The position numbers and the translations under genes are program-made. A stretch of 54,525 nt of DNA, taken from a virus. The notes under the pieces are model-generated. The model had not been told where the DNA came from. It ran no database searches and saw nothing but the letters and a program-made list of their open reading frames with translations. Positions 4,750 through 7,700 of this stretch are shown here, in pieces. The first letter of the stretch is position 1. Every line of letters begins with the position of its first letter. The stretch lies in the UHGV virus genome UHGV-0179380; one strand, 5' to 3'.

Positions 4750-7700
4750 GACCATGATCCTGAGCTTCTCGTAACAAGCGCAAGCCCCGCCCTTCTTTCT
4801 GCACCTGTGCTGGTGTTTGTGTATTCCTCTGTTATCGTTATCGTAACTTTTTGCGCAGTAATCCCTGTGACGCAATGCGATACCGTAAATCCGAATTGAG
4901 GCGTTGATGCAGCCCTTACGACTGAATATGTCTTACTATTGCCATTAATATTAATTGTTACTTTTATGGTTGTTGATTGAGAATATTGATAGTAAGTCAG
5001 GTGATAAGGAATCATCACAAAAACGGTTTTAGAAAGCGAACTCGAAGACGAATCTGTATAAGTTTTAGTAACAGAACGCGATGCACTGCCCGACTGGTTA
5101 GGGAATGATGCTTGAGGTATAAAGTTAGTTGACGCGACATCGCCTACAAAACTTGTAGCCTCTAGCGACCCTTTAAATTTACCGCTATTTGCATACACCG
5201 CCCCCCTTACCGTTACGTTGTTAAGCTCCGCGCTACCGTTTTTATTAATCATCCAGCCAGCCGAACCGGCTTTATAGTTGGTTGACTGTATTTGCTGTGC
5301 AATTTTAGCTGTAGTGATTGCTGCATCTGCAATTTTAGCTGTCCCTATTGATGCGTCTTTAATAAACGCTTCGCGCACATACATTGCACCATTAGTGACA
5401 TAGAAAGGTGTTGTATATGTTCCGTTTGCCGCAGTCATTAACACGAAGCGGTCAACGAGGAAAATACACTGAGATTGTACATCAGTACCGCTACCAGTAA
5501 GACCAAGCGACATACCTGTTGCGTATTTCTTACCGTTGTTATCAGTGGCAATCTTAATTGAATATGACGCATCAACGTTACCTTTGAAGTCAGTTAACGC
5601 TTTCGATGTTGTCTCGATCGCCGTTGTGTTCCCGTTAACGGTTACTGTTAACTGATCAATTTTGGTTGATAATGCCTCGTCCGCCGTTGTCATGGTCTGC
5701 GACCATTCTGTGATACTTGAGTTTACCGCTTCGAAAGACGCTGAGATCTGGCTGAATTTTTCCGCGCTTGATGCTTCATGCGTAGAAAGTGCTGTTGATA
5801 CTTCAGATACTTTCGAATTAATCGTACTGGTAAGCGATGAGTTAAGGCTGCTTATCGCGTCAGTGCGGGCCTTCGTTTCGTCTGCAATGGCTTTATCAAT
5901 CCTGGTAACGTTGCTTGTAACCTTGCTATCAAGCGTGCTGATGCTTGCATTCACTCCGCTGATAGCTTCAGTTCTTGCGCTCTTCTCATCTGCGATGGCT
6001 TTATCAAGACGAGAAACACTTGCATCTGTTTTGTTTTCAAGGCTGCTTATTGAGGCATTTACTCCGCTTATTGCTTCCGTTCTTGCCTGCGTTTCGTCAG
6101 CAATTGCTTTATCTATACGCGTAATGTTGCTCGTTACTTTAGAATCAAGCGTGCTTATGCTGGCGTTCACTCCGCTAATTGCTTGAGCACGCGCGGCGGA
6201 CTCATCAGCTATTGCCTGATCAAGACGATTAACGCTGGCTGTTGTGCTGCTTTCCAGTGTGCTTATGCTGGCGTTAACATTGCTAATGGCTTCAGTTCTT
6301 GCCTGTGTTTCGTTTGCAATAGCTTTGTCTACTCGCGCTATCTCGCCTTTGATGTTTGAGTCCATCGTGTTCATCTCTGCGGTGATAGTTTCAAGCGCTT
6401 CTGCTGTTGCCTGTTTTTCGTCAGCAATGACATTGTCTATACGGTCGATTTGCGCTTTCGTTTCGCTGCGACCTTTTTTATATTGAGCGGTAAGAGTTAC
6501 GCGCGTGTTAGTTTGAGCAAGCGAATTATTAATAAGAGCAAGCGATGCGTTTTGTAGGCTTGCTTTTGTCTGTGCCAGTTCATTATCTACGTTTTCGCTT
6601 GATACCTCTAATGAGTCGATTCTTACCTCATGTTTGCCTATTTCATCGGCGTTTTCTTCGACTTTCTTGTAAAGGTCTTCAGTGTCTTTTTTAAGGGAAT
6701 CAGTATCAGTTCTTAAGCCTTCAGTTATTCCGCTTAGGCTATCAGTTGCTGTTTTAAGGTCATCGGTAGCTGCTTTAAGGTCTTCAGTTGCACTTTCGAT
6801 AATGTCAGTGCGGTCCCCAAGATCCTTAATGTCGCTTACCATTTCCTTAAATTGTTCTGAATTCATCACGTCTTTGGTGACGTAATCGCTAATTTCATCA
6901 AAATTTTCTGTCGGCTTACCTGATGCTTCAACGAAGTCTGACACGCCAAAAGCATTACGTGTACGCACATAAACGTAATAAGTATGGCCCGTGTTCATTC
7001 CGCCGAACGTCCACTGATACCCGCGCCCAGTAAACTGTGCCGCCGTGGTTATTTTTGCCGGATCTGTGATCTGGTTTTCCCCTGCATAGTAGAATTCGTA
7101 CGCTGTATCAGTTGTTAGCGTTGTCTTACTTATCGGGTATACTGTCGCCTGAAATACACCTGGCACCCAATTTACGCCAATTGGCGCGGCGGGCGCACCG
7201 ATGACAAGGTCAACGATACTTTCTGCACCCTTCATGCCAGTATCATTTCTTCCGCGAACTCCTAACGAATACGCGCCAGCGTCGATGCCATAAAAATCAT
7301 AACTGTATTTCGTTGTTTCATAGCTTTTAACCACCGCACCATCTGCATTATATATGCGGATCTCAAAGGTCATACGATGAGTTGTTGTCTGTGTTTCCCA
7401 TGTGGCTCGGCATTGAACCGTTTCAGATCCAATGTTTACCACCTTCAGATTTTCAATGTTCGGCACGCGGAAATGATTAAGCGTATCATTGTTGACCTCA
7501 AAGATTGCGCCTTCATCTACTATCGCTTGTTTGTTAGGGTCGTGCTGTGCGGCCTCGATGGTGTATACGCTGTTATTTTCGGTTTCTGCTACGCTGGTGA
7601 TCCGACACAAAACAGGTTTTGCCGCTTCAGTGGATACAGCGAAAACAGTCCCGTTACGTATCCATGCCGGGGACGCCGCTAAGGTGATCTCATTTCCATT

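Follow-up and report, generated by a model that had tools for sequence, protein, structure and literature searches.

The central tail fibre protein gpJ of phage lambda carries an alpha-helical shaft (AHS, residues 809-861), which forms a three-helix bundle between FNIII-2 and the beta-prism fibre (PMC11101478; PDB 8iyk, 8xcj). A three-stranded coiled coil has also been resolved by cryo-electron microscopy for the shaft of the F2-pyocin fibre (PMC13455828; PDB 25vf). Moreover, the J proteins found in mEpimmI phages of E. coli have been reported to differ in size and to contain 'repeats of different length (positions 950-1,475)' (PMC11893012). In the present study, we analyzed the J gene of the UHGV virus genome UHGV-0179380, a stretch of 54,525 nucleotides (nt) that is called the window in the following and in which a sequence-only reading had noticed tandem coiled-coil repeats of 36 amino acids (aa). 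The interpretation that we favour, with a probability of about 78%, is that these repeats serve as modules of a much enlarged alpha-helical shaft of J in an mEpimmI-type E. coli prophage, and that the units are gained and lost in register.

Judged from its sequence, the gene is a homologue of the lambda-type J gene. Its product matched PHROG 31 'central tail fiber J' with E = 0, and the PDB search aligned J aa 1-850 with residues 1-857 of lambda gpJ (8iyk, E 1.8e-184) as well as, in a second stretch, J aa 1226-1430 with gpJ 839-1034. The N-terminal hub and the FNIII/Ig domains of lambda-type J proteins are all present with Pfam scores far above the cut-offs, and aa 1-810 display 91-98% identity within the mEpimmI relatives. 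Open reading frame (ORF), Pfam, PHROG and gpJ alignment thus agree with the earlier assignment of a 1521-aa J protein. The tail-tip domain could be aligned with chains of lambda gpJ, the F2-pyocin fibre, and T1 gp33 and gp24 in PDB. The distal end, in turn, is 96% identical to that of MagusPhagus, the closest phage relative, but only about 31% identical to that of LamB-using mEp phages, and found no match among the OmpA-using mEp phages in the alignment of relatives. The gene is situated in a tail module with the order L - K (C40 peptidase) - I - J, which is annotated likewise in the relatives; the three ORFs upstream of J were assigned by PHROG to two minor tail protein families, phrog_18 and phrog_30, and to the tail assembly protein family phrog_32, and the phrog_18 ORF occupies the position annotated as L in mEp021. 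The J gene is composed as follows:

4746..9311, minus strand: J gene, 1521-aa tip attachment protein or central tail fibre (ORF list and translation)
6882..9311, minus strand: hub domains and two FNIII/Ig domains, J aa 1-810 (Pfam, collinearity with lambda gpJ)
J aa 88-214: FNIII-A_GpJ (Pfam)
J aa 335-492: Phage-tail_3 (Pfam)
J aa 609-707: Ig_J (Pfam)
J aa 709-811: Ig_J_second (Pfam)
6450..6881, minus strand: first part of the shaft, heptad-type with a period of 3.5, J aa 811-954 (hydrophobic periodicity, heptad repeat)
5802..6449, minus strand: six tandem 36-aa units of 108 nt each, J aa 955-1170 (contiguous profile matches in register)
6342-6449, 6234-6341, 6126-6233, 6018-6125, 5910-6017, 5802-5909, minus strand: the individual units
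5577..5801, minus strand: degenerate continuation of the shaft to the start of the beta-prism, J aa 1171-1245 (predicted helix to aa 1219)
5178..5621, minus strand: tail-tip fibre domain (central straight fibre, beta-prism), J aa 1231-1378 (Pfam PF09327, E 8.7e-39)
4749..5177, minus strand: distal, presumed receptor-binding end, J aa 1379-1521

Compared with the 1132 residues of lambda gpJ, the 1521-aa protein contains about 390 extra residues, which lie after the last FNIII domain and ahead of the tail-tip domain. Because collinearity with lambda is found on both flanks, the extra residues represent an internal expansion of the shaft upstream of the tail-tip domain and the receptor-binding end, and the former description as a C-terminal extension had to be corrected. 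The shaft comprises about 400 residues here (aa ~819-1219) versus 53 in lambda. The 36-aa units contribute 216 of the approximately 390 extra residues, which corresponds to about half. Hence, the repeats do lengthen J as had been proposed, but the remaining extra length comes from the heptad-type segment aa 811-954 and the degenerate segment aa 1171-1245.

On the DNA level, Tandem Repeats Finder detected an array at 5869..6331 with a period of 216 nt, 2.1 copies, 74% matches and a score of 492. This amounts to four units, each of 108 nt (36 aa), arranged in a two-unit super-period. When a unit profile was scanned in the frame of the 1521-aa ORF, six units in register were found, each scoring with E values between 3e-19 and 3e-23. 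The tandem 36-aa repeats are therefore real, whereas the span of 5860..6330 with about 4.5 units given before (aa ~995-1151, approximately 4.4 units) is correct only for the best-conserved part of the full array of six, namely four units and a portion of a fifth. The former term 'near-identical' is also too strong, since the central four units share 58-83% identity in the protein and 57-74% in the DNA, while those at the two ends diverge further. The 216-nt period results from the fact that units two apart resemble each other more than neighbours do. The unit reads V1 T R I4 D K A I8 A D E11 T Q A R15 T E A18 I19 S G V22 N A S I26 S T L29 D S K V33 T S N36. The positions R3, D5, I8, A9, E11, A14 and A18 are invariant in the unit alignment A2; among the 91 distinct units collected from 18 J proteins, E11 is likewise invariant and R15 is found in 77. 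Synonymous difference proportions are near saturation among units 2-6 (0.62-0.84) and reach 0.50 for the unit 1/2 pair, while the non-synonymous proportions between units amount to 0.15-0.46. The saturated synonymous sites rule out a recent duplication in this genome, and the pattern points to units that are old duplicates kept alike at the protein level.

Tandem repeats always bear the risk that the repeat count reflects collapse or expansion during assembly, and the sequence-only reading had named this as the outcome that would speak against it. Beyond this general risk no support for such an artefact was found. It is very unlikely, because the units are too divergent in their DNA and because an independent genome agrees: the longest exact direct repeat within 5700..6600 has only 17 nt, the reading frame is intact, and the complete genome of E. 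coli N1286 encodes a J protein of the same 1521 aa with six units and 8 differences in 648 nt.

Structure prediction and hydrophobic periodicity both characterize the expanded region as helical. AlphaFold2 (AF2) run on the single sequence of aa 790-1000 predicted two helices, 819-900 and 905-999, that are separated by the four residues 901-904. For aa 955-1374, an alignment of 37 sequences yielded one unbroken helix from aa 956 to 1219, in which pLDDT values exceed 90 at approximately aa 995-1184; behind it come a stretch of low confidence and the tip domain, which is rich in beta structure. This alignment was shallow, because the word-indexed protein search gave 36 proteins in all, most of them partial. 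Proline is absent from aa 811-1245. The hydrophobicity spectrum of the repeats peaks at 3.60 residues, and the positions 1, 4, 8, 11, 15, 18/19, 22, 26, 29 and 33 form the core of the unit, i.e. ten core positions per unit in a register of two heptads and two hendecads (7+7+11+11). The hydrophobic class of these positions is conserved to 100% across the 91 distinct units. Such a register corresponds, as far as can be judged from the sequence, to a nearly straight coiled coil. The repeats thus combine a continuous helix, a period within 3.5-3.67 and a lack of helix breakers, as is typical for coiled coils, so that the predicted helix and the hydrophobic pattern bear out the coiled-coil character noticed before.

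The two segments flanking the units are different. In aa 811-954 the value of 3.5 is among the two strongest peaks of the hydrophobicity spectrum, and a second, heptad-scale repeat with the motif xTxDLKx (7 aa/21 nt) occurs in tandem at 6741-6788. The relatives vary in this segment by -7, +14 and +28 aa, that is by whole heptads every time. The degenerate segment aa 1171-1245 aligns with residues 1014-1080 of the helical shaft of the F2-pyocin fibre, and its last approximately 20 residues with lambda 839-861, the portion of the lambda shaft that becomes beta strands when LamB is bound. A PDB search with the helical region alone retrieved the gp33 fibre of T1 (9l9p) at E 2.6e-6 and the central fibre of the F2 pyocin (25vf) at E 1.2e-3; weak matches to coronavirus spike heptad repeats and cavin were treated as coiled-coil noise. 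While domain order, helix prediction, periodicity and homology to a solved three-stranded shaft are direct results, we infer the presence of three parallel J chains in the shaft by analogy to lambda, T1 and the F-pyocins, where J assembles with threefold symmetry. Calculated with about 0.148 nm per residue, such a shaft would measure approximately 5.3 nm per unit, 32 nm over the array and 59 nm in total.

Besides the window, J proteins from seven phages and ten prophages were scanned with the unit profile. As had been suggested for a comparison of related prophages, the repeat number indeed varies, with 4 to 15 units in the 18 J proteins and J lengths from 1350 to about 1914 aa:

4 units: 09-00049, KKa019, PAR, Ecol_244
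5 units: MagusPhagus, mEp515, mEp013, FAH
6 units: window, N1286
8 units: 2017C-4173W12
10 units: mEp010, LP-26
12 units: UMNK88
13 units: mEp021, mEp554, mEp044
15 units: strain 190

Three pairs of close relatives permit a closer look at these changes. The shaft of the window is longer than that of MagusPhagus at two sites, at one by 21 nt, which is exactly a heptad, and at the other by 108 nt, which is exactly a unit. The 21 nt missing in MagusPhagus are located at about 6712-6736, and gap placement together with junction analysis positioned the larger difference as follows:

5961..6068, minus strand: 108-nt block absent from MagusPhagus

The block represents one unit and straddles the border of units 4 and 5, with the later part of the former and the initial part of the latter, and the crossover sits in the shared sequence AGCGGAGT within the 'ISGVNA' codons. 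LP-26 and 2017C-4173W12 are 216 nt (two units) and one other base apart, and their junction falls within a 151-nt perfect repeat; therefore, some alleles carry long identical units. A single in-frame deletion of 1002 nt with 5 nt of microhomology distinguishes mEp515 from mEp021, which show no other base difference, and takes out eight units together with a 46-aa linker. The array is recombinationally active in the J family, because unit-sized in-frame insertions or deletions separate near-identical relatives, and the recent differences of 108, 216 and 1002 nt, all in register, speak for gain and loss of whole units. In this regard, the earlier proposal of a recombination hotspot holds for the family but not for the allele of the window, which is probably a poor substrate for ordinary homologous recombination, because its units share too little DNA identity. 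The phages mEp021 and mEp515 both form plaques on K-12 and both depend on OmpA (PMC11893012). Since both infect, the loss of 334 shaft residues is tolerated. Furthermore, the OmpA users have 13 and 5 units and the LamB users 5, 10, 13 and 13 (receptors from PMC11893012), hence copy number is uncoupled from receptor identity.

In the long alleles (mEp021, mEp554, mEp044, mEp010, LP-26, UMNK88 and strain 190) the units are arranged in two blocks split by the 46-aa linker, a conserved non-repeat sequence found at aa 1271-1316 in mEp021 J. The second block restarts with a 'IDRIDNVIAEEKKATAE' unit like the first one, which suggests that a whole multi-unit block has been duplicated.

Outside this group the unit becomes rare. 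An exhaustive profile search of 1.84 billion representatives returned 32 proteins at E <= 1e-3, so the exact unit is confined to a narrow family. Less strict repeats with an 'AIADExxAR' core are present in further long J-like proteins, such as one of 1922 aa with 15 matches, and in tail proteins. The repeat has no Pfam family; SF-assemblin and Baculo_PEP_C gave only sub-threshold matches, which were taken as compositional. The family PF28217, precomputed as a domain in three matches of the protein search, is probably not the repeat either, because it is absent from the match P0005, which has to carry the repeats. One 1219-aa tail protein (P0038), which is apparently not from E. coli and looks unrelated, contains seven 36-aa repeats at aa ~830-1085 with the same A(I/V)ADExxARxxA core. 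Each of its units also carries a GPxGP stretch that should break a helix, which hints that the module can exist in a form other than a coiled coil. Within the repeat of the window, two antisense ORFs are found on the plus strand (5662..6186 and 6244..6486), which lie wholly inside J and show no other indication of being genes.

Regarding the function of the expanded shaft, we assume that three J chains would form a long, nearly straight parallel coiled coil, and that this rod would hold the beta-prism and the receptor-binding tip tens of nanometres away from the tail cone. Recombination or slippage between units would lead to their in-register gain and loss, giving rise to the allelic series of 4 to 15 units independently of the receptor recognized by the tip. 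Changes in copy number would then probably alter the reach through surface polysaccharide. That the shaft gives access to outer-membrane proteins across O-antigen or capsule is plausible, and an influence of repeat number on receptor reach, as considered in the sequence-only reading, may likewise exist. Some points weigh against the interpretation of the array as a spacer. The structural support comes from AF2 monomer models, and the fibre lengths are calculated. Moreover, a rigid rod of 60 nm must clear the way of the tail tube to the membrane, which a static spacer leaves unexplained, and small residues are strictly conserved at positions that would face the solvent in a coiled coil, which a simple spacer does not explain.

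A further possibility is raised by the central fibre of pyocin F7, in which a coiled-coil shaft of 163 residues changes into a triangular beta-prism on cell contact, a step needed for killing; the authors predict this fold switch for 21 of 24 siphophage central fibres (bioRxiv 10.64898/2026.01.28.702463). By analogy, the array of the window might form a metastable coiled coil; after receptor binding by the tip, this would refold as a triangular beta-prism of compact shape. Each 36-aa unit would become two antiparallel strands and the shaft would shorten about five-fold, which would draw the tail cone towards the membrane and assist in opening it, while copy number would set both reach and stroke. 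This would be an extension of the spacer interpretation rather than a strict rival to it, and we consider it possible although the odds are somewhat against it. The F7 strands are marked by the motif SxSxxMxxLxS in alternating direction and by E/D-R pairs at i+4, with small residues of the motif exposed in the helix and buried in the corners of the prism (bioRxiv 10.64898/2026.01.28.702463). In the unit of the window, positions 35-9 accommodate the motif in reverse orientation and positions 14-24 in forward orientation. The residue class of the motif is kept in all 91 units at nine of its ten positions and in 80 at position 35, and the invariant E11 together with R15 in 77 of the 91 resembles the E/D-R pairs. 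The near-invariant small residues at exposed coiled-coil positions, which are hard to attribute to a spacer role alone, would find their place in such a prism. Motif matches in the array numbered 17 versus 4.9 +/- 2.1 in shuffles. As the six units are mutual copies, the shuffle test overstates this difference; moreover, the motif is loose and lies in a sequence with much Ala, Ser and Thr. The register is ambiguous as well, since the E11-R15 pair suggests another, 4-of-5 placement, and the strand spacing of 15/21 residues differs from that of about 16 in the F2 sequence.

Comparison with other fibres also bears on the possible refolding. The segment aa 811-954, which would be the counterpart of the non-switching 'spine' of F7, is not enriched in the motif, and the PF09327 domain, the prism 'seed', follows directly after the array. 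Residues 917-1166 of the F2-pyocin fibre align with J 1078-1332 (E 2e-26; shaft alone E 1.2e-3), and the homology to the F2-pyocin shaft covers J aa 1078-1250. In lambda, gpJ 841-861 changes from helix to beta strands upon LamB binding (PMC11101478). A fold switch would also explain that alleles with 5 and with 13 units are both functional. However, the AF2 monomer with 37 sequences gave only a helix, although the published protocol uses trimers and varied alignment depth, and the F7 study is a preprint that states that lambda and T5 lack a comparable extensive switch. The more specific proposal that the 36-aa units act as a modular fold-switching spring, in which each unit spans about 5.3 nm as coiled coil and about 1 nm (two strands) after collapse, seems rather unlikely at present.

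The shaft could alternatively serve mainly as a docking rail for side tail fibres. In the F2 pyocin, three side-fibre trimers bind at a kink in the shaft (PMC13455828), and in the window the side-fibre gene (1596..4289), whose product has a Peptidase_S74 chaperone domain, is found just downstream of J; in addition, glycine is frequent at unit position 21 (44 of 91 units). We nevertheless regard such a main function as very unlikely. AF2 predicted no kink inside the array, 4 to 15 units are combined with a single side-fibre gene, and J is functional without eight of the units. In Ur-lambda, the side fibres are reported to be attached via the N-terminal gpStfN domain and the tail tip bears a protruding collar domain; that the fibres dock on this collar and not on the shaft is our own interpretation.

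An expanded shaft with a gain and loss of units in register hence continues to be the preferred interpretation, and the surrounding genes place it in a defined prophage type. The mEpimmI phages integrate at ydaM, abgT or mppA with a matching integrase (PMC11893012). A truncated AbgT is encoded at 1..1446 of the window and a tyrosine integrase at 53431..54477. Due to the truncated abgT, the integrase and the DNA similarity of J (82-94% identity), the window can be assigned on the basis of its sequence to an essentially whole mEpimmI-type prophage of about 53 kb inserted in abgT. Related J genes were found in about 30 complete E. coli genomes; an identical copy of the prophage was absent among the complete E. 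coli genomes of the collection, in which the best match had 94% identity over 93% of the first 25 kb.

Further differences between the relatives were observed next to J. The side tail fibre (1596..4289, minus strand) is a protein of 897 aa with a C-terminal Peptidase_S74 intramolecular chaperone domain. In relatives, genes for very different fibres stand in its place, namely for a pyocin-knob S74 peptidase, a protein with a 'head spike fiber domain' or, in mEp021, a flagellar hook-associated-like protein, which points to a host-range module of mosaic composition. An 82-aa ORF on the opposite strand (4467..4715, plus strand), located between the genes for J and the side fibre, displays a lipoprotein signal peptide and a lipobox (MKNMFKVVLFSAAVALTGC); the MagusPhagus annotation at this position is 'lipoprotein', and one section of the mEpimmI paper deals with Lpp superinfection-exclusion proteins of the group (PMC11893012). 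On the other side of J, mEp021 has an annotated HNH endonuclease gene between I and J that overlaps the J start (8132..8698 of record L002), and mEp515 an ORF for a hypothetical protein of equal length and position (5431..5997 of record L005). The window and most relatives have nothing at this site.

Taken alone, the window adds one more J allele to a group whose variable repeats are already mentioned in the literature. The value of the analysis lies in a clean description of the module, with its 36-aa unit, its 7+7+11+11 register and its two-unit super-period, and in a series of alleles with 4 to 15 units that shows no coupling to the choice of receptor. If a refolding as in F-pyocins were true, this would be a natural length series in the genetically tractable phage system of E. 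coli K-12, which could show how siphophage tails move to reach and breach the outer membrane, and it would provide a simple handle for engineering fibre reach. If the units were acting as a spring, natural alleles including those of mEp021 and mEp515 could be used to test the scaling of stroke length and stored energy in a non-contractile tail.

Among the known systems, phage T1 gp33 (PDB 9l9p; PMC11945409) gives the best PDB match of the helical region. It is a J-like protein with tandem 'IA(D/T)ETxAR...' shaft units, but its unit has a length of about 33 aa instead of 36, and its C-terminal part 821-1172 is not resolved in the structure. The F-type pyocin fibres F2 and F7 share with the window a long coiled-coil shaft, presumably three-stranded in the latter too, ahead of a PF09327-type prism, a similarity in sequence that reaches into the shaft, and the small/hydrophobic strand motif. 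However, the pyocin shaft comprises about 250 residues without near-regular 36-aa units, and its switch has been demonstrated by experiment, whereas that of the window would be deduced from these similarities. The lambda AHS has the same position in the same protein with collinear flanks, but consists of 53 non-repetitive residues as opposed to about 400 with tandem units here. The closest likeness is found to the mEpimmI phages mEp021, mEp515, mEp010, mEp013, mEp044 and mEp554 and to MagusPhagus, which have the gene (82-94% DNA identity of J with the window), the genome type and the 36-aa unit in common. The window differs from them by its six units and by a distal end only about 31% identical to that of the characterized LamB users. 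The published account (PMC11893012) gives the repeats without defining the 36-aa unit, its register or the copy numbers. Repeat variation is therefore already noted in print for this phage group, and the architecture of the window protein matches that of known J-type fibres.

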